Positions 7,100-39,518 of a stretch of 64,000 nt of DNA are shown in pieces. Numbering within the stretch: position 1 is the first letter of the stretch; the number at the start of each line of letters is the position of its first letter. The stretch is taken from contig QPGO01000054.1 in assembly GCA_008632985.1 (NCBI GenBank), positions 62,001-126,000 of the forward strand, read 5' to 3'. The position numbers and the translations under genes were made by a program. The DNA comes from Psammoneis japonica (lineage: Eukaryota). The notes below the pieces were generated by a model. That model searched no databases, had not been told where the DNA came from, and saw only the letters and a list, made by a program, of their open reading frames with translations.

Positions 7100-7515
7100 G
7101 AAGACGTCCCCCAGGGTGGAGAGAAAAAGGGTGGGCCGAGGGTAGGGACAGACGGTTGAGAGGAAGAGTTGGCAGGTGACAGCAGGGTGGCTGAGGAGAA
7201 CAGCTTGACACGTAGAAAGATGGGTGGAGAGAGCAAAGCCTAAGTTAAGACTGAGGATTTGAGAGGCCCAGAGCAAGGGGGATGAAGTGTGGTGTGAGGA
7301 GCCGAAGAGGTCTTGAGAGAGTTGTTTCCAGGCCGCGTTGGAGTTGGCAAGGAGATCGGAGGGTGCGCGAAGAGTGAGTTGGTGAAGGCGGAGAAGGATG
7401 CTTGAGAGCTGGAAAAGGAGGAGGGCTTGTCCAGGGTGGTTGGGAGGAAGGGGTGGGATGGGATGGAGGAGGATGTTGTGGGACAAGTCAGCAGGTGGAT
7501 GCGGAAGTTTCATGT
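7100..7515 (-). mobile_element. Possible 3' fragment of a non-LTR retroelement ORF
   Basis: Strong purine/pyrimidine strand skew unlike neighbouring genes; Leu/Ser/Pro-rich frame (LLANSNAAWK...WASQILSLNLGFALSTHL); sits at the edge of a TpA-depleted domain. Family assignment rests on recollection only. Confidence 0.25.
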
Positions 7516-7534
7516 TGACATCCAGAGTGAATGC

Positions 7535-8700
7535 TCATCTGTCCAATGCTTGTGGCACCTCCTTGAGACAACCTTGTGGGAGCAGCTGTTGCTCTGCCTC
7601 TGTGATCAAAACAGTCTCAACTGTGGTGCCATCTTCTTGCTCAGGTGGAGGGGATGACAAGAGCGCATGACTGAGGGTCAAACTGGGATTGGCTGGTGTC
7701 TCCTTGTTGGCAATGCAGACGGCACCTTTCAAGAAAAACAGAAACATGATGAGCGACTGCGAAAGAGGAAGTTGGAGCTTGGGCACAACATGGTGCATGT
7801 GCAAGACTGCTGGTGCTCGTTCACTCTCTTTGATTCCTCCAACTGCTGCTCTGACACCTTGATTTTTGTGTCTCTTTTGGCAAGTTGCACATGGAGTCGT
7901 TTGCATTCTAAATTCCAACTCGAGTTGCTGGATCTTGCGGGCATTGGAATTGTCAGTGCTCTTTTCAGTTGCGGAAGGTTTTGCATTTGCTCCACATCAA
8001 GGTTCAGGGCCTCTGTTGTTTGCAGTGTGCCCTCGACCATCTGGAGGGACACTTTGCTGCTCAAACTCTGTGGCTGCAGCTGTCTTGGCTTTGGTGGGTG
8101 GAAGGTGGGACAAGAGTGCACGGTGGAAACTCTTGTTGCGTTGCTCATGCATCTTGCCTGTGAAGAGTTTCACTGTGATGCTTTTGCCATGGTGTTTTTC
8201 TTGACATGCAATGGCACACTCCATGGCTGCGGCTGCCATGTCCTCCAAACACAAGAATTCGTCCCCGGTCTTGGTGACTCAAAAAGATGAGAGGCAACAG
8301 ATCGAGTCTTTTAACTGCTCGGCAAAGATTCTCCTTTGGGGTCCGGCTCGCATCAACCAATGCATTGACTGCCTCTCCAAGTTGACATTTGATAACATGC
8401 TTGCCATTGTGGCAGCACTCCTTGCGATGTACGCTTTCGGTGACAGCCGCGACGAGATGTGCGATCTCGCGTGTCATTGGTGTGCCTTTTGCTTGCGTGC
8501 AGCTGAAAATGACTCCCACAAACTCATCTGTTGAGCATGATAGCATGGTGCTCGTTCCTGCTGCTATTCTAAAATGCTGATACGTCACCATGATGCTGTT
8601 ACGGTTTGAGCGACTCACGACTTGCTCGGCTCGGCTTCGATGATCGGCTCTCCGACTCTTTGACGCTTTGCTCTCGGCAGGTGGTGCAGGGCAGTGCAAA
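7535..8700 (-). pseudogene. Degenerate gene or TE-gene remnant, TpA-depleted
   Basis: Successive broken frames (8145-8699, 7997-8254, 7729-8148) that are almost Tyr-free and Cys/His-rich; only one TpA seen in 7501-7920 while several CpG remain. Confidence 0.6.
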
Positions 8701-9806: not shown

Positions 9807-10183
9807 GATAGCAAAGGTTTCGTTGATGAAAGCAGCTTGTCACAAGCTAGAGAAATCTCGCTCTCTCTTTTTAAAATTGACTTTATCTTTACAAGAACTA
9901 AGTTGTTTGCTTTTCTCCAGGTAGGAACAGCACAACTACTTAGAGAGGAAAAGTCGGAGCCGAGCGATGCCGATCTATGACCGGACATCGGACGGTCGGA
10001 CGGACCCGCGACGCGACACACACGACATACCGTACACACCAGCACGACGCATTTCAGTTGTTGTTGTTGTCGTCAATGCTTGTTACTAATACCAGGCAGC
10101 CATTGCTTGACCAGTTTAACAGAACGGCATCTCGCATCTTGAATCATCTGTCAGAAAAGCCCTTGAGATTCTTTGAATTTGAG

Positions 10184-11870
10184 ATGACGGAAGAGACAAA
10201 CGCTGCCACCGCTGCTGCCGATGCAAAAGCAGAATCCAAGTCGTCATCCAAGAAACGAAAGCGACCAGCAACAGCAAAGAAAACGAAAAAGACACCGGGA
10301 GCGCAACAAACACCGAAAACACCTCCTCCTACTTCCATTCTTATTATTGACAATGGTGGTGATACAGTCAAGTACGGATGGTCAAAAGATGACGGAGCAC
10401 CTATGTCTATGCCCAATGCAACAGCTCGTTTGCAGTATCAAATCAATACATTGGTTGGCGATGAGATCGAGACGGTAAAACCGAATCAACTCGAGTCGAC
10501 AACGCGATCCCTGGAACGAGGCCACATTGTCAACATAGGCAATCAGATTCAAGTATGGAAACGAATCATGGATAAACTTGGAATTCAAATCAGTAGCACG
10601 GCCGGGGGTGGTGGCGAAGCTGCTCAGGCTTTTGGTTGGAAGAAGACACGAAATACCAACTCGCCAACACCGGCGCTCATACATAGCAAGAATATTGCTG
10701 TATTTCTGTTGATCCAGCCTCATTGTCCGAGAGTGTTGATCGATTTGATGCTGCAGGTATGGATGGAAGACTTGGGGGTTTCTCATGTTGGCTTTGGAAT
10801 TCGGGTTCTTTTGCAGCGGTGATTTACAACAAACAGCAACAACTCAACAAGTCTTTAGAGTTTGGCGACACTGGTTGCTGCTGTGTTGTAGATGCTGGGT
10901 GGAGCGCAACGCATGTGCTGCCCACCTACAAAGGGAAAGTGTTGGACGGTACAATACGACGTGTGTCTTTGGGAGGGCGCCACTTTATAAACCTGTGGAG
11001 GTACTATGTGAGTTATCGTCAGTGGAATTTGATGGATCAGGAATGGATTCTGAGGGATGTTCAGCATCGCTTGGCGTTCTTCTCGACAGATCTTGCGGCA
11101 GACATGAAAGTGGCACGGCGGGTACCTCTTGGGAAACGACCGTGGGATCGTGACTATGTGTTGCCAGACATGCAGTCAACCAGTAAAGGAGAGGTACGTT
11201 TACCGCCGGGCTTCAACGAGCAATCGAGGAGGAAAAGAACGAGTCAAAAGACTCGAATGAAGCAACAGATGATGATGACGAAGACGATGAGGATCACAAT
11301 GGACAAGAGAGCAGCGATGGCGATGATGACGATGATTCTGATGAGGACGAGTCCGAGGAGGCGGTTCGGCGGCGAGTTATGCGTCAACGTCAAGAGGAAG
11401 AACGTCGACGTCGTGAAAGGGAGGCTGAGCAACAGGTGCTTTCAGTTTCTGTAGAACGATTCACCATACCTGAAGTTTTGTTCACTCCTTCTGATGCCGG
11501 TTTACCCAAAGACATGGCCGGTTTGTCACATGCTATTGTTCAATCCATTCAGGCCTGCCCACCAATATATCGAGCGGCACTCTATTTGAACGTGCATCTT
11601 ACCGGCGGTGTCTCAAACATTCCCAACTTTCAGCAGCGTCTGGAACAAGAGTTACGGAGCTTAGCCCCGTGTCAATATCGTGTGCGCGTTACTGTTTCTA
11701 AAGGCCCAAAAGACCAAGCTTGGTGCGGGGCGCGACATTGGATTCAACAAACCTCCCACGACCGAAAATGGAATGTCAGTAGGGATGAATGGGAAAATTC
11801 CAAGAAAGGCACCAAGGGAGTAAAGTGCTGGCATCAGCTTTTAGTTTCTAATGGTGGAATCTTTCTGTAA
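10184..11870 (+). CDS. ARP6: Actin-related protein 6 (SWR1 complex); frameshifts near 10800 and 11230
   Basis: ILIIDNGGDTVKYG; VVDAGWSATHVLP; VSYRQWNLMDQEWI; DYVLPD; ERFTIPEVLFTPSD; LTGGVSNIPNFQQRLEQELRSLAP. Confidence 0.88.
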
Positions 11871-20955: not shown

Positions 20956-21764
20956 TCAAAGAATCCCAGAGAAGCAGTCCATGTTGACATCAATTTTCCC
21001 GCCGGATGCTACAAGAGAGTCTACCAGGGTTTCCTGATCTTCAACCAAAAGAAAGAAGTCATCTCTTTGCTCATCGCGGCTCTTTTTCATTTCTTCGATG
21101 AGGGTTTTGGCATGATTCGGCCTACAAACAAACGGATATGCACCTGGAAAGCCCGGGTCAAAAATGCAACATCCCACCAGCTCGTTCTTATCAGAGCTGC
21201 GTAACTGCAGCGGTATCCGGTTACCAAGCTCCCGAGCCTCCAAAAATACTCCAGGGAACAGTCCTAACGAAGATTCGATTTCTGCTTCTTCCTCTGGCAT
21301 CACGGGTCTACACTCTGTCAGCCCTTCTGATGATGACAGCGTGCTCAAAATGTCCCATGTCAAATGTACTTCTGCTGCACCAAAACAGCGCTTCAGTCCA
21401 AACTTATGATACAATGCTACCGCTGCTTTGTTTTCGGGTACCACATGCAATCTCCAGCGACTGCATTGACGTGCCTTGAATTCCTTGACGACTGCATTCA
21501 GCAAGGCTGTGGCCACACCACGCCGCCTGTAACTCGCATCGACCATGAGATATTTCACTTGACCCTCTTCTGACCCAGTCGCTGCCCACCACCAAGTGTA
21601 TCCAATGGTTTTGTCGTCTAATTCCGCCACGAGGCTTGTAGGCATCATCTCCCTTGTCCAGCGCTCCAACCGTGGGGGCGGATTCGGATCGTCGAGCACG
21701 AGCCAAAGAGCCGCAACGTCAGCGTAGTCCTTCTGAGTTGCACTGCGAATGTGAAGCGCCATCA
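20956..21764 (-). CDS. GNAT family N-acetyltransferase, intronless
   Basis: Acetyl-CoA motif LMVDASYRRRGVATALL and LHVVPENKAAVALYHKFG; second domain FDPGFPGAYPF. Confidence 0.9.
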
Positions 21765-22266
21765 TTAGCGAGGTTATTGTCAAAAACGATAAGGAGAACA
21801 TGCATTGGAGAGGGATTTACGTGTCATTCCTCTCGCTTTTGCGTTGTTGTTATTGTTGTTTGTGTTGTTTCTTCTAAAACAGCAGAACCCGGAAACCATT
21901 CTCACAACATTATTTTGAACTCGCAACAGCGATGGGGTCACAACAATCGCAAATGAAACAAACAGATCTTCAAACGCTGTGGGACGTGGAGAATGCAGCT
22001 GATTAAGATGGGCCAGTGACCCAAAGGCTCATTGGGCCTGTTGGAGCTCAGACATGAGACGCTCAAAGAGCCGCTCAAGCGGTGTGAAGCACCTTGCAAA
22101 ACCTTTGCAAAAAAGGCTGCCCTCACCTCACCTTGGTCCTGGATGTCAGCAGGCATTCAGCATGCACTCAAAAAAATGCAGAGGCTGGCCCTCACATCAG
22201 AGAGGTAAGAAAGAGTGCATGAAATGCAGGCCACTGTTTGGCACTTTTGCACAGTGAGCACACTCT

Positions 22267-22677
22267 CTAATTCATTCTCATGTGGGCGCCCACCACTGCT
22301 GACTGAAATGCATTTCGCTCATTGGCAGTTGATCTTTTTTGTTTGTTGTTTCCACTTTCTTTTGGCGTGCACATGACTGTGCCCCAGGACCAAATTGTTT
22401 TGTTTTTTGGGTCTTGACTCAAGCACAACAACAGCTGTGACTGCCCGGCATCATTTTGTTCAAATGAAGACAGAGTTTCATTTGATTGTTGCCACACAGA
22501 CATTTTTCCATCAAGGAATTTTTCAAAATCATCATTGAATGTTGGCATGCTCGTTTGTCAGCCAGGGAGGGCAATGTCCAGAGCAAAGTAACCAGAAGAA
22601 AGCCACTTGGTCCATTGCATGAAACAACTTGTGTCACAGTTTTTTTGTCCTTGTTGTGAGACTTCCATTTGAATTTC
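22267..22677 (-). pseudogene. 3' part of a degenerate gene interrupted by the copia element (5' part at 28461 to about 29000)
   Basis: Removing the element joins two copies of an approximately 148-bp coding repeat (KFKWKSHNKDKKTVTQVVSCNGPSGF and KFVRKSHRNDKKTIVAQVTAHNGPSEF). Confidence 0.6.
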
Positions 22678-23010
22678 AGTTGAACCAGCAAATCAATGTC
22701 ACCAAACAGAAATCCCACCAGGCTTTCTGTGCTGCTTGTTGCACTTGCCTTGGTTTCTATGTCAGCTGCAGGTTGCCTGTGGTGCTGCAAAGCTTCTAAA
22801 CTGATGGTGCAAATGAGCACGCACCTGTCAACACTGAATGACAAATCTTGTGAACCAAATGATTCAATCCAAAGAGTGAGAACAAAATGAAAAACAAGGG
22901 TTGGAGATCAATGATGGTTCATTCTTGTTGAAGATCATTGTCATTCTTTACAACATCAGGACTCACCCACACATGTCGGAATTCCCTTTTTGACATCACA
23001 AACAGGATGC
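22678..23010 (-). repeat. 3' LTR of the copia element
   Basis: Aligns to 28117-28460 (tgtgctgcttgttgcacttgc, ggttgcctgtggtgc, ctgaatgacaaat, gatcaatgatggt); preceded on the minus strand by the purine-rich gacaggagtg. Confidence 0.85.
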
Positions 23011-26000
23011 ACTCCTGTCATCCTTTTGATTCTTAATTGCCTGTGATGGCTTGCTTAAACTTTCAGAACTTCTTGCCCTGCAACGGCTTTGTCATGAAGT
23101 CTCCAAACATGCCATCAGTTGGACAACACTGTGCTCTCAGGTTGCCCTTCTTTGCTTGATCAGCAATGAAGAAATGCCAAATGTTGAGTGTCCCAGACTG
23201 TTTCCCAGCACTCTTGCACCCATCAGTTGCCAGCAGTGTGGCACTTTTGTTGTCCTGACATGGGACATTCTTGTCAATTGGACAACCCTGGTGTTCCACA
23301 AACAACTTGCTCCTGAACTCCAGCTGGCTCAGCTTCTGTGCTGCTTTGGGCATTGAGCTCCTGTTGTTTGAACATTGTCTGTGCCCCTCCATCACCCATG
23401 GTCACAACTCCCCCTGTGCAGCTTTTAAAGTCCAGGTTCACCGCAAATGATGTGTCCACATGCCACTTGACAACTTGGAGGTCCTTTGCACTTAAAAAGT
23501 GGCAACTTCATTCCTTGTCCAGTTCAAACATTTGACACAACAGACTGGTTTCCCCCAATCCTTGTTGGTGAGTTCACTCACTTGCAATTGTGCTGCAGCA
23601 GCAGTTGGGTGCACATCTGTGTGGCCTCTCTTGGAAACAAACAGTCACTTGGCCACCCCTCTGTGGAAGGGTTGTGCTTTCTTCTTGGTCAGCAGTTGCA
23701 TGCTGCCAGTGTCAAACAGGTTCTCTGCAGCTGGCATCGTGGCAACATCCACACTCTTGATCTTCTCTGGGAACTTGTTGATCATCTTCTTGACACAGCC
23801 ACTCATGTCAACCTTCATTTTGCCCTTTGCACTGAAATCCAGGGTCATCCCCAGGCAGTTGTGCCTCTTTCCTTGAACAACAATGACCTCATTGTGGCTT
23901 CTGCACATCTTGTTGAGCCAGCTCAAGAATTTGTCATTGACCTTTGGGTTCCTGTGGCTTGACAACAGGTTGTCCACATGGAAATGAATCATGTGCTGTT
24001 TTCCATTGACATTTCCATTGGCAATGCAAGGATCACACAGGTTGAACTTAAGCCCAATTTTCTCCAAGTCTTTGCAGAATTGCTTGCACCACAGCAGAGC
24101 CATGACTGACATGCCACATGAGTCCCATGCAGCCCTGATGACTTGGACATGAAGGATGACTCTCTTCCCTTCTCCAGCCAGGACCACACATGGTCCATGT
24201 GGGTTGAAATCAATGCTCACAAGCATGTCAACCAACACTCCTGCAATCTTCATCATGATCTGGTCTTTGCCCTCCTTGGCAGGCTTTGGGATCAAAGTCT
24301 GCACAAATGTGTTGGGTGCATCAGTGTGCTCATTGTGTCATGCCCTTCTGCACCAGCATCAACGTAGGCTGTTGTTGGTGTTCCCTCTGGTTGTGACACC
24401 ATTGGGCTGGCTCAGTTGTCTTTGTCCAGCCATTGTCTTGTTGGTTTCTCATTGTGAACCTTTTGACCTCTTCTGCGACCATCTTGCTTCTCCACAAGGA
24501 ACACAAGAGCTGCCACAGCCCTTTTCCTCTCAGTCAGATTCACATCTTTAACTGACATTGGTGCAAAGCACACACTCTGTCATGGAATTGTCCAATCTCT
24601 TTTTCTGAGGCATCATGCCCTTTCTGGCCAAATGCTTTTGGACCTTTGTGCAGCAAATGCTTCTGGGCAAAGGAAACACCCTTTCCTGATTGGAGCTGGT
24701 CATTGATCTTGCACATGAACTGTGCCATTGTCATTTCCACATTTGAGTTGTGTTCCATGTCCTTTGGGTTTGGACTCATGTTTGTTCACAAATGGTGGCA
24801 GCACTCAAGTTCACTCCATTTACACTCCTCTTCAGTGGTGTTTGCCACTCCTGCAAACCAAACCTTTTTCTTCTTGTTGTTTGCCTGCAGGTGTGCTGGT
24901 GTGCCACAGCATTGCCAGAGGATCTGCCACTTCTGGTCCTCTTGGGTTCATCTTCTGATTTGTCTTCATCTTGGGAATCACCATGTCTTGCAACTCATCA
25001 CTGTCCTTTTTTGCTTCAGTGTCATCATCATCATGACAATTGCTTTTGGCTTTTGTGCTCTCATGCTCCTGTTGATTGGGTCTGGACCTTCCATTTGTGA
25101 GAATCTCACTCACTTCCTCACATTCATTGTCTGGGTTTTCTTCTTCATGATCTTAGTCATCAGAGTTTTGTCCTCATTTTCTTCCTCACTGTTGTTGCTG
25201 TCACTGTCATTGCCCATGTTGTCTGCTCCTGCAGTCCAATCAGCATTGCACATGTTGTCTCCACATTTGCCTGTAGATTTAAAATCTTTGATGCCTTGTT
25301 TGGTGATGCCATCTTCTTGACCACTTGTGCATGTGTGTTGGCAAGGGGTGCAGCAGTGCACTTGCAAGGGCTCAGGAGTTTCTTCATGTGCAGGTTTGTG
25401 GCGCAGCATCTGCTCTTTGGATTGTCAAAGTGTGGTTGCAGATGAACACTGACAGTGCCTCATGTGTCCATTGTGTTCATTGGATCTTTCCAGGCATGAG
25501 ACAGGACAAGAAATTCTCCAAAGGAAAACCAAAAGTGTTTGTTGCAGTTGAGGTTTCTGCATTGTGTGGTGGTGTGTGGGCTGTTTGAGTGTCAGCAATT
25601 TCTTCCTTTTGTAAGTGCATGTCAGTCATGACAGTGTTCTTGATTGCAGCATGCTTGTTGCACATTAACTTGGGTGATGCCTTGTGTGGTGGGTGGTGTG
25701 CAGTGGCTTGAATTTGCTCCTTGATGGTTTTGATGCTCTGCTCAACTTTCAAGCACAGTCCTTGGCATTTGTGCCAAAACATGGCCCTTGGTGTTTGCAG
25801 AAATCAACTCCAGATTCATGCCATCAGCAACTCTTCCCACAGCACCTCCTTTAACTTGGAATTGCACTCAACAAAATTGATCTTGAACAAAGCCATGTTG
25901 TGCTGTCACAAAATTGCATCCAGGGCACAGCACACATTGTCGTGCCACTTGGACTTCAGTTTCATGCTTGATTGGCATTTGACCGTCCAAGCAATCATGC

Positions 26001-28116
26001 GTGTGCTTCAATTTAACTTTGCATGCTTCCATGATGTCGATGCAGAGCATCATGCCCTCTCTTTGCCACTTGCAAATCTCCAGAGGAGTCACAATCATGA
26101 TGTTCCTCTCATGGGAATGATGTGCTTGTTTGATCTTGCCTTTCAAGGCATCCACTGGTTGGCTCCACATGGCCACCATCTTGTCCATGAAGTCTTTGGG
26201 TGCAAAGGACAAGTTCTTCTTCACCTGAGTGGATCACAAAAATTGCTTGAAGTCCCTCACACTTGGAATTTCAGCCTCATGATGCAGTCTGAGCATGTGC
26301 TCAGCATTTGCCACCTCCCTCTTGCAGCAGCCTGTGGTGGCACTTTGATCCATGGTCAGAACTGTGGTTCCTGATGCACTCCTGTGCTCCTTCTTCTTCT
26401 TCTTCTTCTTCTTCTGTTTCAACAGCATGCTTGCGTGAGACTCTTTCTCTTGAAACTCGTTGACACAGTCAAAAAAACTTCTCATTGGGTCTGAAAGCAC
26501 ACAGCCTGATGTCAACGATCTTGACTTGCCAGTCTTCTCATCCAGCAGGCAGAACTCATCTGAAGCTTGGTTGTTGCATGTGATGCAGCGCTTTTTTCTT
26601 CATGTCCTTCAAACTCAGGACATTTGCTGTTGCATTCTCTGACCCAAGCTTTGTGTCTCCCCATGATGGAATGGCACAGTCTTTGTCCAGTGCATCCACT
26701 CCTGCATTTGTGGGCAGATGATTGTTGTTCTTTGCCGGTTGCACAGTGTGCACAAACCTCCAGCTTGCTGCCATGCTGAGGGTCAATCATTGTTGAGGAT
26801 GATCTCATCCATCTTGATGTCCATGTTGGCTTGTGCCATGCTTGTTTCTGGTTGCTCACTTGTGAGTTGCAGCTTGTGCCATGCAGCACATCTGTTTCTG
26901 GCAGAACAGCTTGGTCTGTTGGATGTTGTGGTGTTGATGCTTGCACTGTCACCATCCACGAGTCTGTGCATGACTGTGTCCCCTGATGTCCAGCTTCTGT
27001 CCTGTGTCCTGAAACCAATTGTTCTGCAATGTGTCACCTTTGTGCAAGCAGCTTGGGGACTTGTGGCATGGCTCTGGTCTTTGCTGTTGCTGTTGTCATT
27101 GTTGCCATCCTCCTTCTTTTTGCCCTTTTTGTTGCTGTTTCTTGTCCTGATGCAGCTGTCCTTTGGATGGCTCAGCAATGCATTCGCAGCTGTCTCCAAG
27201 GTCTTTGGGCAGGAGGCATCCTTGTCTGGACTGCAGTCCCTCACAAAGCTCTTCTTGAGGCCCTTGCAACAATGACTGTTGCTGTGCTCTGAGAACAGGT
27301 GTGTCATCCACTTCTTGCATGCCTCATCCTTTCGCTGTCTCTGAGTGTCAGGATTTGCTTCTTGTTGTTGTTTTGTGTTGGCAATGAACCCATCAAACAT
27401 TTTCTTTCCCTGGCCTTTGCTCACAGCATCCTGCCAGTTCTTGAACCTTGACAAACAGTCATCACCTGTTCTTTTGTTCTCTTGCTGCCTCACATCCAGG
27501 AGGTTCTTCAGTGACTTGGTCAGCATGTGGAATGGATGACAACCTCTCATCGAGTCAAATGTCAGGGTCTGAATTGGCCTCAGCAGCTCAATCAGATTGT
27601 CCCTCAGTGCAGGACAGGCTGGATCATGTTGCACTTGTTGTCTCATTTGCCTGGAACAACAGTCATCCCATGTTGTGAAGAATGCAACAGTCTTGTTCTC
27701 TTTGAACTGCACAATCTTCTTGCGGCAATCATGCAATTCCTCCATGGTGCACCTCCACTCTGGCTCCTTGTTTTTGCACTCACACTGTTTTGGCAAGCTT
27801 TGGCAATTGGCGCCTCCTGGACCTGGTGCTGTCTTCTGGGACATCTTCAGAGTGGGTTTCTAGCAGTTGAAGTCCTTGCATTTTGTGTCCTCCAGTGATC
27901 TTGCCAGATGGACTCCTTGCTCATTTTCCTTCTGCATGTGTCAAATGATCCATTCAACATTGAAGGATGGAACTTCAGCTCAGGCTGAGAGCACTTCTTG
28001 TTGTTGGGACTGTCTGACCTGTGGCTCTTGTCATCTCTGTCTTGGCTGCCAACTTGGCCAGATTGCTTGCCACTCCCTCTGCCACTCATGGCACAGGAGA
28101 TCTCAGGGGAAGTGAA

Positions 28117-28460
28117 TGTTAAACCAGCAAGTCGGTGTTGCCAAAAGGGAATCCTTGCTGGGCTTCATGTGCTGCTTGTTGCACTTGCTGCCTTGGCTTC
28201 TGCATTGGCTTTGGGTTGCCTGTGGTGCCAATGTAAAACCTCTAAACTGACAACACAACAGGCACCTGTTGATGCTGAATGACAAATTGCGCAAACCAAC
28301 AAATGGCTCACTTGAAAGAGCAAAAACAAAACAAAAAACAAAGGCAGGGGGATCAATGATGGTGCACTCTTGTCAAAGATCATCATCATTCTTTGCTGTG
28401 CCAGGATTCAAAATTTCTTTTCTTCAACACTTCCAGGTCCCACATCTGGGTGTCCCAACA
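28117..28460 (-). repeat. 5' LTR of the copia element
   Basis: Canonical TGTT...AACA termini (tgttaaacc...cccaaca), immediately upstream of gag start MSGRGSG at 28089. Confidence 0.88.
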
Positions 28461-29049
28461 ATTTCACCCTGTCAACTTTTTCTCTCCTCCCTTGGCAAAG
28501 TCCAATGCAGTGTCAGTGGGCAGCCACAAATTCACTTGGTCCATTGTGTGCTGTGACTTGTGCCACAATTGTTTTTTTGTCATTTCTGTGAGACTTTCTC
28601 ACAAATTTCACCTCATCAATTTCTGCTTTCTTTGTTTTGACTGATGTCGACAGGGTGAGATTTGTGTGCACACCCCACAGGTGAGGAGAGGGCTGGAGGT
28701 GGCCATGGGGAATTCTCCTGAGCACCTTGTGGCTCCCTTTCTCAGTTCAAGAATGGCAGCAGATGGAGAGGAAAAAGTGTCAGACCCCTTTTCCAGCAAT
28801 TTTGAAGACTTTGCTGGTGATGAAAAAGAACAAGAGGCCATCTCTTCTCACTGATCACAGCACAGTGCAGGGAGAATGGAGCTGCTGCTGGCAATGACTC
28901 TCTTTGCAAACAATGAGCAGAAGGTGGCTGTGATGTCACCAGAAAAAATTGCACTTGTGTCACTCTCAAATGCAGTCACAAACAACTGAAATGTTTTTGC
29001 AACTTGGGGGGGGTGCAATTTTGAATCCACACAACTTTTTTCAGGTCAA

Positions 29050-32000
29050 GAGAAAACACAAAACAAGGAGGCCAACTTGCAACAATGCAAAGCAGCACCA
29101 CAGCATGTCACACACAACACAAAAGTTGTGAGAAAACACAGCAATTGCAGCTCAGAGACAGACCAGTCTCTGAGTGAGCAGACGCCGATGATGACAAGGT
29201 TGGCAGAGACATTGTCAAGGGTGAGAGACCACATCAAAGAAAAAGAGCCTCTCTGAGCATCACACTCACATTTGATGCAAAGCAATTTGAGGAAACAGGC
29301 ATGCTGTGTGAAGACAAAATTTGCTGCAAGTGTCATTGAGCAAGATGGAAAACCAACTCCCACATCTTGCTGTTTCTCATGATGCAGGGGTGCAAGAAGA
29401 CAAAGAAGCAAGAACTCTCTGCTCTGAGGCCAACAGATGTTGCAAGCAAGCTTGAGAGCATCATCAACAAGGGTTTCATGGAAACAGAAGTTGTCATGAA
29501 GAAGGGAAAGTGTGCAAGACACTCAAGCACTTTGCAGCAAGCAACTGGAACCCAGCAGAGGAAGACACAGGCAGAAGATGATGCAAAATGCCAAGGAAGA
29601 GCAAGGGATGGTTGATGAGAGCCAACAAGTTCTTCTGCAAGCTGTTCATGGAAATCAAACAAGACATTGCTTCAAGTGAATGACTGCTCCTCTGCTGACA
29701 GGAAGATTTGCACAAAAGAGCTGCAGCCAACTGTTGAAAGCAAACAGGAAAAGAGCTTGATGACTTGGGTGGTGAAGGAGACCACATGACAAGCTGCACC
29801 AAGATCTGTGAACTGGAGCCAGTGGTGGCAGTTTTGCAGACAAAAACCCACAAGCAGAATTTTTTTCATTGTTCAACATGAGATTCCAAGGCAACGCTCC
29901 ACTCCAGAAACTGCACTTTAGACAGCAACCATCAAGTTGAACATTTTGGGGGTGCAAACTTGGTGAGTTTTGCTGCACACTGACTGGGTTGACAAGATCT
30001 TGATTTGAAATCATGCACTCACACTCACACACCTTTTCTTGGACTGCAGTCCACTTTTCTTGGACTGCAGTCCACTCATCAGTCAGGGGGGGGGGGAGAT
30101 TCCCAAATTTGCCCCCCCCCGATGCCATGCAGTGGCTTCAGCCAATGCTCAGCAGACAACACAAACACTCAAAAAGTGCACTGGTCAGCAACACAACAAC
30201 TGCTCTTTGGGCATGCACAAGCATTTTGCAAATGCAAAAAGCAAAGTTCTTGCTGGCTGTTGTGGCAAATGTCCCCATTGGAAGCACGGGCTGCTTCTTC
30301 AACAGGCAGCCACCATTTTACATCAAGCTTGCTTCCAAAGACATGTGCAGTCAAATGCATGTGTGGAGAAAAGCCACCAAGAACCCAAGCCTTCAAATTT
30401 GCAAGGCAATCATGTGTGGATGATGTTCAATGACTGAACTCCAGCAGATTTGGCTTGCAACAAGAGCAAAACAATCAACTTGCGCACCTTTGGCAAAGAG
30501 CTGAAGTGGCCACATCAACAAAGATGATGATGTGTTCTTTTTCAAAAACATCAATGGAGATTTTTGTGAGCTCCATGCAACAACAACAAGCAAAGTGATT
30601 CAGAAACCCACATTGTTCCTGTGGTGTTTGCCATTTCAAAATTTTTGAGAATGGCGGGGGGAAACCAGCAGCGGTGTTTCGCTCTCACATTTGTGTGGCT
30701 TTTGCAAACCCCAATGCAGTGCATCAGTTGATTTGGCACAGTGCAAGCTCCAAACTCCAAGATTTCTTTTCCTCCAACCTTCATGCACCTCACTGCATTG
30801 TTGCATCATGTGTCACCCCCCTCACACACCCACAATGGCAGAAAAAACCACAAAGCCCACCATCACTGCAGTTGCATCACACAATGTCACAGTTTGGGAT
30901 GATTGGGCTCAATCAATTCCATGGCTGCACATTTGTGAAATTAACAGAGAGGGCTTTGACCACCAAAAGCAAATGCTGAGTCAGAATTTGACCACAGCAG
31001 CACACAAAAAGCAGAAAAAGAGCCCAGAAGGAATTGGAAGCAGCACATGAAGCACATCCTTTGCAAGACACAAGCAACAAAAAATCAACACAGCAGTGGC
31101 TGTTTGAGACTTCTGAATTGTACAAAATGGCAGCCTTTGGTGCATGCATTGGCAAAGCATGTTTTGCAGGGCACAATGCAATTGACAAGCTTTTTTGTGG
31201 TGGCTTTTTTGGTGGACATTGTGATGCAAGTTCTGCACAAAGCTGCCCAAGGCATGCGTGGTGCACAGCTTGTCATGGAAATGGCTTTTTTTTTAAGAAA
31301 TGGCAAGAAGAATCAGAGTGCATGTGAGCCATCCTCTTTTGCATTGCAAACACATTGGCACACCTTTCCTCTTGTTCAAAATGCTGTCTGTCTCATTTGG
31401 CGCCTTTTTTGGAATGGCACAAATGTGGATTGTGTGTTGCAATGGATCCTGGCACTCCAGCTGAGATTTGTTTAGCCTGAATGGCATCCATGGCCGGGGA
31501 TGACAATGTCTTGGCTGGCACTTTGTCCATCCTTGCCCTGTGCTGGTGTGCACATTGCTGAGTTTTGTCCTTCGCTGAAGACATTTGGAGATGTGCAACG
31601 TCTTTCTTTGGTTGCCAACTGTTGTGCAGTTTAATTCTAGCCTCACTCTTCACCCACTGCTGCTGTTCATCTCCAATCACAGTCAGCATCTTCATGCAAG
31701 AAATGGACAAGCAGTGGTGCAGTGGTTGGCAAGCTGCAGAGAGATTTGATCCATGAACTGCTTTGTGTCCGATTCCAGCACCACTTTGCCCCATGCACAA
31801 GAGAGTGAGGGGATTGGTTTGTCCCATGAAATTGCTGCAGCAGCTGGCAGGGAAGTCATCAGTGAATCCACAATGTTCACATCAAACAGTTGCTGTCATG
31901 CAAGCAACATCACCTCCTGTTCCATCACTGGGACAGGTGAAATTCAATGAGTTGATTGTGCAAAATCAGAGTTGCAAGTCATTTGAGCCACTCACAAATG

Positions 32001-33950
32001 CCAATGATTTTCACAGTTTGGAAGAAAATGAGTTGGCAAAAATGCATGCAAGCATGGCTGGCAGAATTGCAAAACTCTCACAAGCCTTGAAAGAGCCCTT
32101 CATGAAGCAGAAGCAGCCCAATGAGGAGTTGCAACAAGAATTTGAAGCCAGGCTCAACTGCTTTGAGAAACTTCATCTCAAGCAACATCAACAAAATGGC
32201 ACTGAGTCACAACAAGAGTTTGGTGCAAGGAGAAACTTTTTCAAGCACCACAACAATCAACAGCTGGACAGAGAGCAAGAGACAGCATTTTTTTACAAGC
32301 CCTTTGGTTGCCATGCAAGAACACAACAAAATTGCACCAACAAAAATGACCAATCCTGGGGAAGCATGCAAAGCACAAGCAATTCCAAACAGTCGCCATG
32401 ATTTGATGCGTCCAAGGTGCCAACACTGCATCAGATGCCAAGGTGCAATGCCTGCTCTTTTGTGAAAAGTGCAGATGAGACCATTGACCCCAGCCTGCGT
32501 GGGTGCACAACTGCAGAACTGTCCATGGGCAATCAAATCAGAAGACTGTTGTCACCAAAGCAGATGACCTTTTGCAGGTTTTTGGAGGCATTGGTTTTGT
32601 CTGAGGGGCGTGCCTTTTTAGGTGACATCTTAATGGCATTTAGACCAAACAGGTTGCTTGTGGGAAGTGACATGAAAGCATCCATTCCCAGCCTTTCAAA
32701 CAAGTGTGATGCAAAAGCCACAGAAGACTCCTTCAAAGCAGATGAAATGTCAGACTCACAGCACACATGTGCAACTGCAGCTTTTGAAATGATGGTTTTG
32801 AAGACAAGAACTTGACTCAGGAACAATTGCAGTGTGTCTCAAAAAAATTGTGCATGGCCATTGAATCAGGACAAAGCCAATGACGAGGCTGCTGCCCAGG
32901 GCCCCATTGGAAGGTTGTTGCTGGGGCTGACACAATGGCGACACAGGAAGCTGCCATGAGAAAAATGGTTTCCAGCAAAGAGCTCTCTCACTCTGATGAA
33001 ATGCTTGCTTTGGAGTTGCATCAAAAAGTTGTTGCCAGAAAGCACACAAGACCATCAATCAGAAGCAAGCCTTGACCTCAAACATCCCACAAGGGAAAGC
33101 ATCAAGCAATGCAAGGAAAAGCTTTGACACACTGGTTCATTTGCTGCTGAGGCTGCAAGCATGACCCAACAAGAGAGAAAGCCATCTTGAGTTGCTGTTG
33201 ACAATGTGGTGTCCAGCGCAGACTTTGATGTAGACCAGTCTGATGTGCACATCAAGTTGTTGTCAGGGGAGGACATCATGCCCAAAAAAAGGAGTTGTCA
33301 TCACTGGAAATTCAGCACATTGTTGCAGACAGAGGCTTGGAGAAGTCAGAAGAAGTGACGCTTTGGGAAATGACCAAGAGACAAGATCTTGCTCATGAAG
33401 AGACCAAGAGAAAATCAAGGCAGCTGCTGCTTTGCCAGATTTTTGTCTTGAACAATGACTTGCAGCTCAACAGCAAGAAAGCTTTTGTCTGATTGGTGTC
33501 CAGGAGTCAGGATCTTGCTTTGGAAGAGGAGGCTCTTGCCAAGTCTACAAGCCAACAAATTTCATTGAGCAAATGCTTGGCACAAAAAAGAAGCTGCAAT
33601 GCAGAAGGTGGTGTCAGGGGATGCTGTTTCTGATGAGGAAGTCCAGCTGCCTTTTTGGGCATGCCAGAAAATGTCCGAATCCAGATGAAATGTGCTTGGC
33701 AAGTCTCATGTGACAAGAGTGAGAGGTGACAGACATCAAGACAGGAGAGGTTGCTGTGATGATGCTTCAGAAAGTGCAGGCAGGAAAATCAATGAAAGCA
33801 AGAAGGGAGGCCATGCAGAAAATGGTGTGTGGCAAAGAGCTCTCTCAACAGAAGACACTTTAGACAGCTGGTGCAATGCAAGCCACAAACTCTCTCCAAC
33901 ACAAATGCATCCACAAACAAAATGAAGGTTGGGACAGAGTCTGGCTTCAC
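29050..33950 (+). pseudogene. Degenerate coding remnants of unidentified TE(s) or gene(s)
   Basis: Chain of broken plus-strand frames with protein-like composition once some Cys/His are read as Tyr (31034-31327, 31763-32401, 32417-32815). No family motif confidently recognised. Confidence 0.45.
30033..30074. repeat. Exact 21-bp tandem duplication, each copy containing the 14-bp palindrome TGGACTGCAGTCCA
   Basis: cttttcttggactgcagtcca at 30033-30053 and 30054-30074. Confidence 0.95.
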
Positions 33951-34183
33951 CAGTTGCTGTTCTGACAAGGACAAGAGCAAAGAAGAAGACTTCTTTGACC
34001 CCTTTTGAAAACTCAATGTCACTTAAGATCAGGAGAGCAGACTTGGACTTCCAAACTCCTCTGCAGAGTGAGAGGATCCCATGATGGTGTGCCAGCCAAC
34101 CTGACAACCGCAAACTGAGGTCATTGGTGGTGTCTGGTGGACCCCATGTGACAGTTTGAGAACTGTGGCTGGGCATTGCAAGG

Positions 34184-34467
34184 CCCAGTTTCTGCCCACC
34201 ACCAAGGGCATCCAATGGTTTTGTCATCTGGCTCCACCACAAGGTTTGTGGGCATGTCATCATTTCCCTTGTCTGGTGGTGCTCCAGCCATGCTGGGGGC
34301 GGGGTCGGACGGTCGAGGAGCACGAGAGCCAAAGCAAGCTGCAACATCAGTGCAGCCCTTCTGAGTTGCACTGCAAACATGATGAAGTTGGAGAGTGGTT
34401 CACGTGTTGTTGTGATGCTTTTTGACCTCACTGCTGCTCCCTCGTCCGGCAGCCAAACCCGGAAACC
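34184..34467 (-). pseudogene. Truncated, mutated duplicate of the GNAT 5' CDS and upstream region (source 21574-21897)
   Basis: Shared blocks ctgcccaccaccaag, atccaatggttttgtc, ccttctgagttgcactgc, ttggagag, aacccggaaacc in the same order and orientation. Confidence 0.92.
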
Positions 34468-34999
34468 TTGCAAGGTGTGGTTTTGTCGCAGACAATGCTT
34501 TGCCATTTGCCATTGCCCATTGCCAATGGCAGACTCTAGAGCAGGCCCAACGCTGCATCTCGCTCGCGATTGCTCATGATCGCGATGACACAGCACCGCT
34601 TTACCTTGCACTCTAGAGAGTGGACTCTAGAAGCAGCGGGAGCATCCATTGAGGGCTTGCAGTGCACTGATGCAAAGCAACCCATCGCCCTACGAAACCA
34701 TGAGTTCAGCATCATCTACGCTTGTCCGGGGGATGATCCATCGTTGCCATGAAGTCAAGCCTTCCAAAGTGTGAGAAGTGTTTTCGCAAGGACGGCGTGA
34801 CATCTGGGCATCCCAACCCATGTTTCCCGGATTTTTCTTTTCTCCCATGCCCCATGCGAGACTTTGTTCTTGATCCGACCCTTTGCTGTCTCTGCCACTC
34901 TTGCTCCCCTCTTGGGAGAACGAAGCGATGCCATTGCTGCCCGTGTGTTTCGTGTCATGCCAGCACCAGCACGGCTTGTGCACAACAAGAAGGTTGACA

Positions 35000-36090
35000 A
35001 AAAATGACAACAACAAAGACGGAGTGGGAAGCACGGCGAGGAACTCAATCATGCATGTTGTGCCTTCCTCAAAGACTCCAAAGTTCACGCCTCCGTCTGA
35101 CATGCAAAGTGCTTTTGTGGGTGCCATTGCCTTTACGTGCAGCACCATTTCAGATGTTGTGTCGGCTGCCATGATGCCTGAGCAAATGAAAAAAAAGGTT
35201 CGAAGCCATGGCGCGACTCAAAGCTCACCCATTTGGATGCATCTGGTGTGGGAGATGAGCTTGAAGAGGTGAGCCAAGATGTTGCATGGACAACAGAAGC
35301 TGACTCATTCCCGCTTTTTCAATTTTCAGGCCCTCATGAAACCCATGTTGTGAGGGCGTTTGCTTGACAATGTGAAGATCTTGAATGACATCCAGGAGAA
35401 GAATGACGCTGATCATTGCGAGAAGGCTCAGTCTCGCAATGTCAGCAACATTGATGAAGAAGCCAAAGAAGGAAATCGATGCATGAGGTTCGCTGCAGCA
35501 GGCAAGGCGCGCACGCACACAAGTCTTCAATTGTGCTTTTCCAACTTTTGTTTGACTCACTCAACCATCTCCAAAACATCGACATTCCCAGCTTGCACAA
35601 CCGAAATGATTCGGAGCGCCATTGACAAAGAGGTCCATCCAGAAGAATTGCAAGATCAAAAGACGGCGATTGCTCGTCATGCCATGACATCTCCTGAGGA
35701 CGTGAAACTCTTGTGCGCAAAGGACGACAGCAATGACTGCCATGTTCTGCACCACTTTGTAGCTGTGGACACAGAAAACGAGTCAATCGTGTGGTCATTG
35801 CGAGGTGCACCATCAATGTCTGGATCCATCGTGGACATTCAGGGCATGGAATGTGAGTGGCAGGTGTTTCTCATGCTGCGTTCTCACTGCAGGCACAGAA
35901 CGAACCCGGTCATGACAGGCGAAACCTGCAAACAAGGAGTCTCAATGGCCCATGCGCACAGCACGTTCAGTGATCACTTTTACTTTACACCGAGATTGCA
36001 GACTTTTTCGCATCCCGTTGGTTTTCTCAACCGCTCAGGCAACTGCATGAGGCATGCCTGAGCATGGGGCATGGCCAAGATCCCGCCCCC
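35000..36090 (+). pseudogene. Class 3 lipase (DAG-lipase-like) pseudogene
   Basis: CMRFAAAG (cf. YMRFA.AAYG), HFVAVDTENESIVWSLRGAPSMSGSIVD (cf. IVLSIRGT.S..D), GMAKI; no catalytic GHSLG found; stops and frameshifts. Ends approximate. Confidence 0.65.
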
Positions 36091-37787
36091 AGGTGTTCCG
36101 CACCGGCACATTATGACAATCGCGAACAAAACCAGTTTTCTCATCGCCAAGCTGCGTTTCTTCCTGTTGTGAATCGAAGTGGACCAGGCAAAGGCAAGCC
36201 GGAGCACAGCCGCAATTCACTCATCTCTCGTGCAGAGCAATGAGTCCAGATGCCCCGTCGAAACTGGGTGCTGCAGCACCACAGCCGCAGCCGAGAAAGT
36301 TCGACAGCAGGCACTTGTGGAATCATCTTGAAGCTCTTGATCAATGACATCGTTGTGATTTTTCCGGCGCTCGACATGTTCACAGGTTGCGCACCTTTCG
36401 ACAACATCTTTAATTCTCTCCGCTTCATGAAAGACTGCTGAAGACAAGACGTCTACTCGCAAAAGCAACAGTGCGTCGAAAACAGCAGCGACGGCATCAG
36501 AGTGCCGTGCGCGAGAGTTACGACCGTCAACATGGTCCATTGACGTACGTACGGAACAAATGGCATGCAAATAAAGATTGCTGTGCTGCACTTTTAGTCT
36601 TTCCACTTCTCTGTTGTAAAGGTTCAAAGTGTGTTTCGAATGTTTGAAACACGCCAATGTCAAAAGTTGATGGAAATTGGTCGCGTGGGATTACATTGCC
36701 TCAAGAGCACCATCATTAGATGGCGCTCAAGCTTTTTCCTATTTTTGGGGTGGAAAACCACCCCAAAAAAAAGAAAAAGGGGGGACGTGCTGCGGAGACA
36801 GCAAGAGAAACTTGCGAGTCAACCGCGTGCTAAATCAACACTCCCTGCGAGTGAAGACTTGCCGCACCACATCGCTGATGCAACGGAACCCCAAACCCCG
36901 CGTTCCGTCAATGGAACGATCTGCTCAGTGAGCTTTTGCTGCTTCGCAGACGAACGCTGCTGTCTGTTTCAACAGCCGTGACCTGACGGGTCAAGCGAAC
37001 AGGCAACTTCCTGCGGTCAAAGACACAGGAGTGACATGGGCTCCAGGCCGGAGACACACATTTGATTTGCCCTGACCTCCGGACTTAACTGGCAACACCT
37101 GCGCTGCCGATTTCAACAGCACACTTGTGCTGAAGCAACTTTGACAAAAAAAGAGAGACAAACCGCCAGCATTGGAATCAAGCTCAAGGTGAGCTGAGGA
37201 AAAAGAAGGACTCAATCACATCGTGCGGGTTGACAAATTGAAACTGAAGCAGTTCCCTCTTTTTGTCGCTCCTCCGACATCGTCAGTTCCCATCTCGAAT
37301 GATGAAGCGAAAGAGAAGTGCTTGATCCTTCTCCACGGACGGAATGCCAGCCTGAAACAGACGGTGTCGACGCTCCACAGGTGGGGTTCTTTACACTTCT
37401 CTTCACCCATGGCACCATCATCGTTCCCGCACCAATCACTGATGATTCCCTTGCGGCGTTTGTGCGGAGATGAACAGATTTTTGAAAACGGGCGTCGTTT
37501 GAAAATGGAGGGAAATGATGTGGCTGGAAAACCAACGGGTGTGTTTTACTGTCACATTTTGTGTAATTTGTGCGAACCCCTACGACGTCAGCCGAACTTC
37601 AAACAGCGCGAGCTCCGAACTCCAGATTTCCTTGTCTCTCCACTCCACACACACCGCACCGCATATTCCTACTACCGTACTACCCATGGTGGACGGCGTT
37701 CGTCATCATGTCAATGTCGTGCTGAACTTCACCGGTATCATAACATGCTAAAAGCACCCTTAATCATAGGCTGAAGTAGGGATAAGA

Positions 37788-38625
37788 ATGTTTCATCTCA
37801 TGAGATCGTATCGGTGTGGCGGATCAAAAGGTCGGCGATACCGATGGATGACAGGCAGATCGGCATCGAGTCGTCGGCCCAATCCGTTGTTTGTCAATGC
37901 GAGCAACGCCCCGGATGACTTTGATCCATCCGGAGCTGTGGTTTACGACTCCTTTGTATCACATGAAGAAGGAGAATCTCTAGTGTCTGATATAATGGCT
38001 CGAATGCGTCGGTAAGCTACGTGAGCTTCATCCAGAAAAGTGCCTTTTTACTTCCGACACATACACACTCACAACCTACTTCTGTTGATGCAACGCCACT
38101 AGCCGTCGGTACGAAAAGGGACACTGGGATGCAGTCATTACGGACTACAAAGAAGTGGAGCTCTTGGATGAATCCGTACTTGGCGACGCTTCCAGAACTG
38201 CAATGGATCGTGTTCGAGAGCAATTGTTGACCCATCATTTGCCCACTTCCAGAGAAGAAATTACGTTTCTGCCGTGTCACGCGATTGATTTGAAAAAGGA
38301 TGGCGAGCTCAAGGCTCATGTCGACTCTATCAAATTCTCTGGAGATGTCGTTTCCGGAATTAGTCTGCTATCTTCCAGTATTATGAGACTCAGACCAGAA
38401 ACAACGCAACAACGAGGCAATGATTCAGAGGAGCAGTCGGAAGGATGGGTCGACTTGCATCTTCCACCCTTGTCACTCTATGTTTTATCAGGATCGACTC
38501 GATATCATTACACACATGAGCTACTTCCCTCTGGCTCTGTCTTTGAAGCGCCCGACGGAACAACTGCGACGGTTATTCGTGATCAACGACTCAGTGTGAT
38601 TTTTCGTGATGCCAAGGATTCGTAA
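37788..38625 (+). CDS. ALKBH7: AlkB homolog 7-like 2OG-Fe(II) dioxygenase; intron about 38012-38102
   Basis: RRYEKGHWDAVITDYKEVEL; HAIDLKKDGELKAHVDSIKFSG; SLLSSSIMRL; RYHYTHELL; RLSVIFRD. Confidence 0.88.
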
Positions 38626-39518
38626 ATGGTATGTGGTGTGCTAGTAGCTCTCATTACGTATTGCTTGAACGTGGTTCCTTCTCTTTGGATGGCTCTTGAT
38701 TAATGCATATATGGAATTACCGTCTGACGTACGAGTTCGCGCTTGTATTGAAAGGACGACGACACTGCGGCTTGAATGAAGCTTCACAAAAGAGAAACTC
38801 CTGTCTGTTCATTATACTCTATTGATCTATCCAGATTCCATTGCACTCACTCCCATCTTGTCTTGTTCTTCTTGCAATCAAGATCCGGCTTTGCGACCTT
38901 TGTCGTTGAGCGGGCAGGCTTTTTCGTGCTCTCCACGTCACAGTCACACCGGTATTCATTTCAAAATGTCACCGGGGAAGATCAGGCTGGAGCTCTGTTT
39001 TGTGATTCGTAGACACTTTTTGTCACTTGTCTGTAACGGATGGTGACACAATCGTTGCTCGAGACGCAAATGTATGGTCATTCATGACATTCTTCTCACA
39101 TTGGTTAGAGTATTTCGCTGCTTTCGAGTGCCGGCAAGCACGAACTATGGTAATATTGCAAGCCTCAAACGAATCGTCTGTTTGTTTGAAAGTATCGTAG
39201 GTGTTGTGAATGAAAATAAATAGTAAACTGCTCTAGAGTACCGGTACCGGTAATAGAGTACTTAGTATCGATCATATCATTGGTAACAGCCTCTGCTCTG
39301 CCAGACTCTCGTCATCTGCCCATTTGGGCCATCGCGCGGACCACTCATTTTTTTCTGCACGGGGACCAATAAGTTCACGTTCTCAGGTCAATTTTTTTTT
39401 CAAGAGATAACGAAGCTGTTGCAAGCTCAAGAGCAATAGGCGGAACAAAAGAAGTGCATTTCTCTAAGGTAGTTTATCAGAGAAGAATTATCTTTCTTTA
39501 AAATTTCGCAAACAAAAA

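Follow-up and report, generated by a model that had tools for sequence, protein, structure and literature searches.

A block of repeats in the window analysed here (the whole stretch of 64,000 nucleotides) has lost nearly all of its CpG and TpA dinucleotides, and a broken copy of an acetyltransferase gene lies at the edge of this block, some 12 kb from its intact source. The pair raises the question of how the copy came to be mutated in this way: whether it was struck as a duplicate, as a neighbour of transposons, or through the ordinary decay of a pseudogene. Fragment and parent form a natural before/after pair that fixes the direction of change, and the surrounding DNA shows how far the same changes extend.

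A truncated, non-functional copy of a GNAT gene

The window contains many genes with few introns at a GC content of about 48%, and encodes HSF-type DNA-binding, helicase-associated (HA) domain, SMP-C2, ankyrin and LRR proteins. Where the relatives of its transposon and lipase proteins are named, they belong to the diatoms Epithemia, Cyclotella, Cylindrotheca and Seminavis, and the source is therefore treated here as a diatom or something closely related. The intact GNAT acetyltransferase ORF (20956–21801, minus strand, 281 aa) matches PF00583 at 8e-19, and its orthologues are 72% (best match) or 47–59% identical at the protein level. An X1 contig covering 21000–21984 and an X2 contig covering 21000–21827 match this gene with 0 differences. 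The parental segment of the duplication (21574–21897, minus strand) lies within and upstream of the gene and is undepleted.

The region 34184–34467 (minus strand) had been described in the initial annotation as a dead duplicate of the GNAT gene, and we arrived at the same view. A blastn self-search of the window matched 21574–21754 to 34184–34382, both in the same orientation, with 75.9% identity in an alignment of 199 columns (E = 5e-31). Recoding the bases as purines and pyrimidines lifted the identity to 88.6% over 201 columns, which indicates that most of the differences between copy and parent are transitions. MAFFT extended the homology to ~21897/34467, spanning a gap of 45–48 bases; past 21574/34184 and past ~21897/34467 we found no homology, local alignment scores being no better than those of shuffles. 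The copy comprises only codons 16–76 and ~96 upstream bases. Since the start codon and start region (the 45–48 bases) are missing and the frame is broken by indels of 5, 3, 3, 5 and 2 bases, the copy is dead; the conserved residues R19, Y26, R47, W48, A59 and Y68 are also replaced in it.

The fragment contains DNA upstream of the end of the X2 contig on the GNAT gene (21827), and a lipase relic next to it, described below, retains a 61-base GT..AG segment. Therefore, neither fragment is a retrocopy. Along the DNA, the parental segment is followed by 12.3 kb of repeats, the GNAT copy, ~220 bases and the lipase, a layout suggestive of a 324-base duplication on either side of an insertion; alternatively, the GNAT copy could be the remnant of an ancestral divergent GNAT–lipase pair. 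A first metagenome scan for orthologous GNAT DNA, as an outgroup or for synteny, found no relative. Twelve loci from a second, alignment-based scan were only 23–37% identical; these are not orthologues and were left out.

TpA and CpG are preferentially changed in the copy

The hand alignment behind the initial annotation had all five alignable TpA altered, about nine CpG turned into CA or TG, and four to five CpG retained. The MAFFT alignment reproduced these counts. The parental TpA at 21599, 21725 and 21818 read CA in the copy and those at 21619 and 21639 read TG, while 9 of the 17 aligned CpG in 21574–21897 became CA or TG and 5 were kept, the four examples quoted earlier among the changes. 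In the core alignment of 181 bases we observed 32 mismatches, 27 of them transitions (13 A>G/T>C vs 14 C>T/G>A). Its four parental TpA gave two CA and two TG, the fifth site (21818) lying outside the core, and its 15 parental CpG gave six CA and three TG, with three kept and three changed otherwise; these fates move by 1–2 with a second aligner. In total, the parental segment has 10 TpA and 22 CpG, and the copy has 0 and 9. The remaining five parental TpA were unusable, three lying in the 45–48-base stretch that is absent from the copy and two in poorly aligned upstream DNA.

Counted per dinucleotide, with the neighbours of CpG and TpA left out, 5/5 TpA and 12/16 CpG were changed, compared with 34/143 of the others (Fisher p = 0.001 for TpA and 8e-5 for CpG), the numbers from this fragment alone being small (5 TpA, 16–17 CpG). 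Only 1.2% of 673 flank intervals of 284 bases have no TpA, the median being 10. The TpA/CpG pattern in the GNAT copy exceeds chance.

At other sites, the background divergence between copy and parent is ~10% (15/143). This divergence implies that the fragment is old, and a slow bias could have operated instead of bursts. The other-site changes in the core tend towards A>G and T>C (9/15), and TAAT>TGGC clusters occur both in the GNAT pair and in a second pair of repeats (30659–30818/37526–37685, see below), so that the A>G process also acts at some sites other than TpA.

Orthologous proteins side with the intact copy

The intact copy had been taken as the ancestral state; this assumption agrees with the outgroup proteins. 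We aligned six orthologous proteins to the GNAT gene and mapped the codons of the copy onto the alignment. At all nine nonsynonymous differences that fall in ortholog-invariant columns (R19, Y26, D38, N40, R47, W48, S56, A59 and Y68), the intact copy has the conserved residue. Among them, Y26 and Y68 are TpA losses (both TAC>TGC), and R19 (CGC>TGC), R47 (CGC>CAC) and A59 (GCG>GTG) are CpG losses. We read the GNAT fragment as carrying the derived states because the orthologous proteins side with the intact copy at every informative codon, both tyrosines included. Outgroup polarity of this kind covers two of the five TpA and three CpG sites, at the protein level; the other three TpA (a synonymous codon junction, a variable column and upstream DNA) are out of reach of protein comparison.

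The copy lies at the margin of a hypermutated repeat block

The GNAT fragment sits where a ~12-kb repeat block (22004–34183) ends on the right; in this block CpG and TpA are nearly all converted (o/e 0.09 for CpG, 0.05 for TpA, 1.88 for CA and 1.78 for TG). The base composition is almost unchanged, GC being 46.4% in the block vs 48.4% in the left flank. In the flanks, CpG o/e is 0.93–0.97 and TpA o/e 0.53–0.57, and in flank DNA outside long ORFs the values are 1.01 and 0.71. Therefore, the depletion of the block is not genome-wide neutral decay.

We also examined the limits and the contig support of the block. X1 contigs 21000–21984 and 21974–23008 cover the left boundary with 0 differences, so it is not an assembly artefact. 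Four X1 contigs agree with the window up to 22003 and then, judged by eye, appear richer in CpG and TpA over the next 30 bases. This is weak evidence that the left limit at ~22004 falls inside a repeat, beside the GNAT promoter and ~180 bases upstream of the end of the X2 contig; such a position would weakly favour promoter-chromatin protection or selection over recognition of repeat units. Diverged other-copy contigs span the entire block, with 642 transitions vs 186 transversions against the window, and their 40 listed differences include several CA/TG swaps. X2, which is labelled 'DNA?', gives no cover over most of the block, and this is uninformative on expression.

Because TAA and TAG stops and Tyr codons are almost gone, the block is full of long false ORFs: 68 stop-to-stop ORFs of at least 90 aa were counted on both strands in 22000–36600. 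Pfam returned nothing meaningful for 46 ORFs of at least 90 aa in 22419–36690. Blocks of this kind are an annotation trap, giving long false ORFs while the real transposon genes escape Pfam. In 28610–34183 we found neither a copia nor a Pfam match, and this part is repetitive by contig depth only.

A Ty1/copia element mutated after insertion

By its similarity to known polyproteins, the element beside the GNAT fragment is identified as a Ty1/copia LTR retrotransposon with permuted repeats and mutated ORFs that lack a Pfam match. The polyprotein remnant runs from gag to the C-terminus over 23036–27955 on the minus strand, full-length relatives mapping from 27955 to 23036. Its RT ORF (23648–24337, minus strand) was missed by Pfam and recovered by phmmer at 1e-55; 22 relatives were found at E ≤ 3e-24, of which 18 carry PF07727 (copia-type RT). 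There is no Tyr codon in this ORF of 230 aa. In the comparison with 14 relatives, 124 columns were conserved at 70% or more. All eight conserved Tyr columns were lost (five to Cys, two to His and one to Trp) and all four conserved Arg columns were altered (two Gln, one Cys and one Gly), with further changes of D>N (3), V>I (3) and A>T (2). These changes, polarised by the protein family, are the footprints that TA>TG/CA and CG>TG/CA leave in amino acids.

Self-comparison of the window placed LTR-like direct repeats on both sides of the element, at 22570–22965 (left) and 28118–28610 (right). The two are 72% identical in bases and 91% identical in purine/pyrimidine code, and over 282 aligned bases we counted 14 CA-vs-TG dinucleotides, which make up 28 of the 68 mismatched bases. 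Such differences are expected if each LTR-like copy resolved ancestral CG/TA sites on its own, whereas editing of a shared RNA template would not give them; the changes therefore occurred at the DNA level, once the element had inserted.

The segment order is permuted between the two repeats (B–A on the left, A–gap–B on the right), so that they are not colinear. Other-copy contigs connect both LTR-like regions at several points, and solo-LTR or tandem-LTR forms elsewhere in the genome are suggested.

TpA loss extends beyond CpG loss into a lipase relic

The right-hand limits of the two depletions differ. CpG loss ends at ~34300, within the GNAT fragment, while TpA loss continues to ~36400 and in a patchier form to ~37600. 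In the zone 34468–36400, which is depleted of TpA only, TpA o/e is 0.10 and CpG o/e 0.72. The initial annotation had spoken of one mutation spectrum: the changes that it named are present, but they do not make up a single spectrum, CpG and TpA loss being spatially separable. The different limits argue against a single mechanism, and favour two activities, or one activity with a methylation requirement at CpG. The unequal ranges also offer a handle for separating both activities experimentally.

TpA loss without CpG loss thus reaches ~2–3 kb past the block, across a pseudogene (34688–35860, plus strand; tblastn 4e-50) of a sn1-diacylglycerol lipase (Lipase_3 relatives). This relic, directly to the right of the GNAT fragment and head-to-head with it, corresponds to the N-terminal two thirds, aligning to residues 16–~350 of diatom sn1-diacylglycerol lipases of 481–671 aa; PF01764 is present in all ten relatives found. 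It has four in-frame stops and ends before the catalytic half. Its 391 codons include 1 Tyr, 14 Cys and 18 His, and in three well-aligned blocks the Tyr of the relatives is Cys in the relic. TpA has been lost from the relic (o/e 0.10), and most of its CpG is retained (0.72). A 1902-base X2 contig aligns to the relic with 91 differences and 24 gaps and omits the 61-base GT..AG segment. From this we conclude that a ~90% identical lipase copy, spliced or intron-less, exists elsewhere in the organism.

The earlier statement that host-derived DNA is mutated, made for the GNAT fragment, therefore extends to a second relic. The process is regional and goes beyond the transposon itself, so that host promoter and coding DNA near repeats are at risk. 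The summed contig depth over 34041–36308 is ~6–7x single copy. The GNAT and lipase fragments may thus by now belong to a repeated unit, and this depth leaves 'host-derived bystander' and 'part of a repeat' without a clean distinction.

Three features of this margin are recorded as side observations. Immediately to the right of the fragment, three of the few surviving TpA (34537, 34614 and 34628) all fall in CTCTAGA(G/A), a short motif repeated almost identically within 100 bases. The segment 36309–37442 is a high-copy repeat by its X1 summed depth (~2400–2700 vs ~60 for single-copy DNA), and is TpA-poor with normal CpG. Among 11 ORFs searched with Pfam in 35974–39046, only a weak AlkB-like match was obtained: an ORF at 38089–38625, outside the TpA-poor zone, matched PF13532 (2OG-Fe(II) oxygenase, AlkB-like) at 2e-06, below the curated cut-off, and its position beside that zone is probably a coincidence.

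Other sequence pairs and the effect of flanking bases

The enrichment persisted in every comparison available within the window, four beyond the GNAT pair. One of them is a repeat pair that was detected only after purine/pyrimidine recoding. Its hypermutated copy (30659–30818, plus strand) lies inside the block and has 0 TpA, and its little-mutated partner (37526–37685, plus strand) lies at the outer edge, where CpG and TpA are still present. From the partner to the block copy, 9 of 13 CpG became CA or TG and none was kept, and of eight TpA, four became TG or CA and one became CG. A double hit of this kind (TA>CG), like the TAAT>TGGC seen in two independent pairs, suggests that a single episode can strike both strands.

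We then asked which TpA survive. We tallied by tetranucleotide, and per base, the 52 TpA left in 22004–36400 and the 1795 of the flanks, and observed a strong dependence on the flanking bases. Survival relative to the flanks was 0.87 for TTAA (16 vs 62), 0.19 for CTAA, 0.18 for GTAA, 0.17 for CTAG and 0.09 for CTAC; it fell to 0.02 for GTAC, 0.017 for ATAG and 0.015 for ATAA, and was 0 of 129 for ATAT and 0 of 277 for ATAC. A simple model in which each flank adds its own hazard (A > G > C >> T in the position preceding the T, with both strands read) accounts fairly well for the mixed classes. The rule is built from survivors and not from polarised events, so part of the TTAA could be newly created. 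GCA/TGC (1.79) and ATG/CAT (1.75) show the highest trinucleotide enrichment in the TpA-only zone, which fits ATAC>ATGC. Among surviving CpG, GCGC is relatively enriched (0.26 vs 0.04–0.13 for the other classes). The flank dependence, with TTAA spared and ATAT/ATAC erased, constitutes a testable specificity for candidate enzymes.

How the copy was probably mutated

The copy is a non-functional, DNA-level duplicate of the GNAT gene, and we consider it probable that it was a bystander at the edge of a repeat block that was hit by two context-specific transition processes. The duplicate, promoter-proximal and 284 bases long, lies at the right edge of transposon-derived repeats. Both processes acted after insertion on one continuous stretch of chromosomal DNA with the repeats at its centre, and they went nearly to completion. 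The simplest account of CpG>TpG/CpA would be deamination of 5-methylcytosine in methylated repeat chromatin. TpA>TpG/CpA amounts to A>G on either strand, possibly by an ADAT2-like adenine deaminase with activity on DNA, as proposed for integrated viral DNA in Bigelowiella natans. The GNAT fragment and the lipase relic were caught in the margin of the block, and the fragment would have been mutated because of its position. The targeting may follow a chromatin domain, one of the options named in the initial annotation, or the repeats. The parent may have escaped by lying outside the block (boundary ~22004), by purifying selection, or by both. The methylation, the deaminase and the targeting of the block are what we infer from the pattern. 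One enzyme for both contexts is conceivable, as the B. natans preprint cites ADAT2 enzymes that deaminate A as well as C.

A process triggered by homology, in which the duplication or its repeat family is recognised and mutated as in repeat-induced point mutation (RIP), with the diatom DNMT4 as a candidate agent, seems to us unlikely. It would explain why all the mutated DNA is duplicated or repetitive, with other diverged copies spanning the whole block and the GNAT and lipase surroundings at several-fold depth, and the diatom DNMT4, in the accounts available, groups with fungal RID. However, the parent copy is unaffected (CpG o/e 1.21 in 21600–21799), and direction and context are reversed, TpA being destroyed rather than created and GC unchanged. 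Moreover, the depletion runs without interruption across the borders of elements, and its left limit apparently falls, on weak evidence, inside a repeat. Ordinary neutral decay of a pseudogene under a general mutation bias, with selection making the parent look unmutated, appears very improbable. TpA o/e is already ~0.55 in the flanks, the parent is constrained with conserved orthologues, and the background divergence leaves a long time for decay; yet flank DNA outside long ORFs retains its CpG and TpA, the limits are sharp, the depletion comes in discrete patches (22004–34183, ~7300–8300 and ~63400–64000), and the survival of TpA depends on flanking bases (TTAA 0.87, ATAC 0 of 277) in a way that the flanks do not show.

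We give equally little credence to editing of a retroelement intermediate before integration by an ADAR-like or APOBEC-like activity, with the fragment carried along in a chimeric transcript. An LTR retrotransposon is indeed present in the block, and the Discussion of the B. natans preprint notes a preference of ADAR for a U ahead of the edited A. But the 14 CA-vs-TG dinucleotides between the LTR-like copies require mutation after the copies had separated, and the mutated zone takes in GNAT promoter DNA and the intron-bearing lipase relic and crosses element borders unbroken. We also considered a few chemical sources of the TpA changes. Known 6mA sites are ApT and not TpA, which bears on the idea of 6mA as the source of TpA loss; another idea was that a TET/JBP enzyme oxidises thymine and 5mC. 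Errors of Pol-eta at WA motifs after mismatch repair were considered as well, and AA is not depleted in this DNA (o/e 1.26).

Beyond the bystander reading, the window might record a hypermutation system of genome defence in diatoms, SAR-wide, that deaminates the adenine of TpA on either strand of chromosomal DNA with ATA/GTA sensitive and TTAA immune, can strike both strands at a given site (TA>CG, TAAT>TGGC), is accompanied by CpG deamination and spreads over ~2–3 kb; we regard this as possible though somewhat doubtful. The agent might then be a single ADAT2-like enzyme with activity on both A and C, and neighbouring host genes would be killed or reshaped.

Relation to known systems

The closest described case is that of B. 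natans (bioRxiv 10.64898/2026.01.13.699255, Mettrop et al.). According to the main text of that preprint, mutation-accumulation lines yielded 231 new mutations in two viral regions, of which 230 were A>G or T>C changes, every one of these on TpA, at a rate of ~6e-7 per site per generation; TpA-poor, CpA+TpG-rich clusters were enriched in RT and DDE domains, and an ADAT2-like adenine deaminase that works on DNA is put forward as the agent. The likeness lies in TpA>TpG/CpA transitions confined to foreign or mobile DNA and in such clusters. The same transitions occur here in discrete foreign or mobile regions, with spill-over into the GNAT and lipase relics. However, B. natans is a chlorarachniophyte (Rhizaria) with giant-virus and virophage insertions and laboratory-measured rates, in which, as the preprint describes it, TpA is only about halved, whereas the window has a diatom-like host, copia and other repeats, a TpA o/e of 0.05, loss of CpG as well, mutated host fragments and dependence on flanking bases. 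The changes in the window are not strictly TpA-only either, as CpG is also lost (12/16 in the fragment) and some A>G fall at AA. The window shows the end state of a B. natans-like signature in a diatom-like host.

As far as the available text of the preprint goes, the terms CpG, diatom and trinucleotide are not mentioned, and our full-text literature search found no paper linking the TpA signature to diatoms or to CpG loss; the supplements of the preprint may hold context data. The TpA signature thus appears, from these sources, to have been described once so far, in a 2026 preprint, in one chlorarachniophyte and for integrated viruses only. New here are the diatom-like host, the coupling to CpG loss, the spill-over into host-derived fragments, and the flank rule (TTAA spared, ATAT/ATAC erased). 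The GNAT fragment serves as a sound internal control and is no discovery of its own.

RIP resembles the present case in that repeats accumulate dense transitions, by which transposon ORFs are killed. It is reported to leak into adjacent unique DNA. The initial annotation had nevertheless set the locus apart from classic RIP, on the ground that only one copy is mutated, and this distinction is upheld by our data. RIP, as summarised for RIPCAL, is C:G>T:A mainly at CpA and mutates both sequences; it creates TpA and lowers GC. Here, TpA is lost and not gained, the transitions include A:T>G:C, GC is 46% vs 48%, and the parent is intact, keeping 22 CpG, 10 TpA and the conserved residues, with the caveat that selection may have kept them.

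CpG decay through 5-methylcytosine resembles the present case in CpG>TpG/CpA changes restricted to repeats (here 9/17 CpG in the fragment and a block CpG o/e of 0.09), but it does not account for TpA. Diatom transposons are CpG-methylated through DNMT5a, and DNMT4, related to fungal RID, has no known function in the accounts available. Hyper-editing by animal ADAR or APOBEC enzymes likewise gives clustered A>G or C>T in repeats, with U/T preferred before the edited A; however, these enzymes act on RNA or on reverse-transcription intermediates, and here chromosomal DNA was mutated after insertion.

Other features of the window

A patch at 7300–8300 has the composition of the block, with 0–1 TpA, 1–5 CpG and ~40 CA+TG per 200 bases. 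It overlaps an ORF of 207 aa (7667–8290) with no Pfam match, and could represent a solo LTR or some small repeat. A TpA/CpG-poor, CA/TG-rich composition appears again from ~63400 to the end of the window (64000). Finally, actin-like matches in 9977–11454 are divided between two overlapping ORFs (9977–10822 and 10759–11454), a split that points to an intron, to a frameshift or to a divergent actin-related gene.
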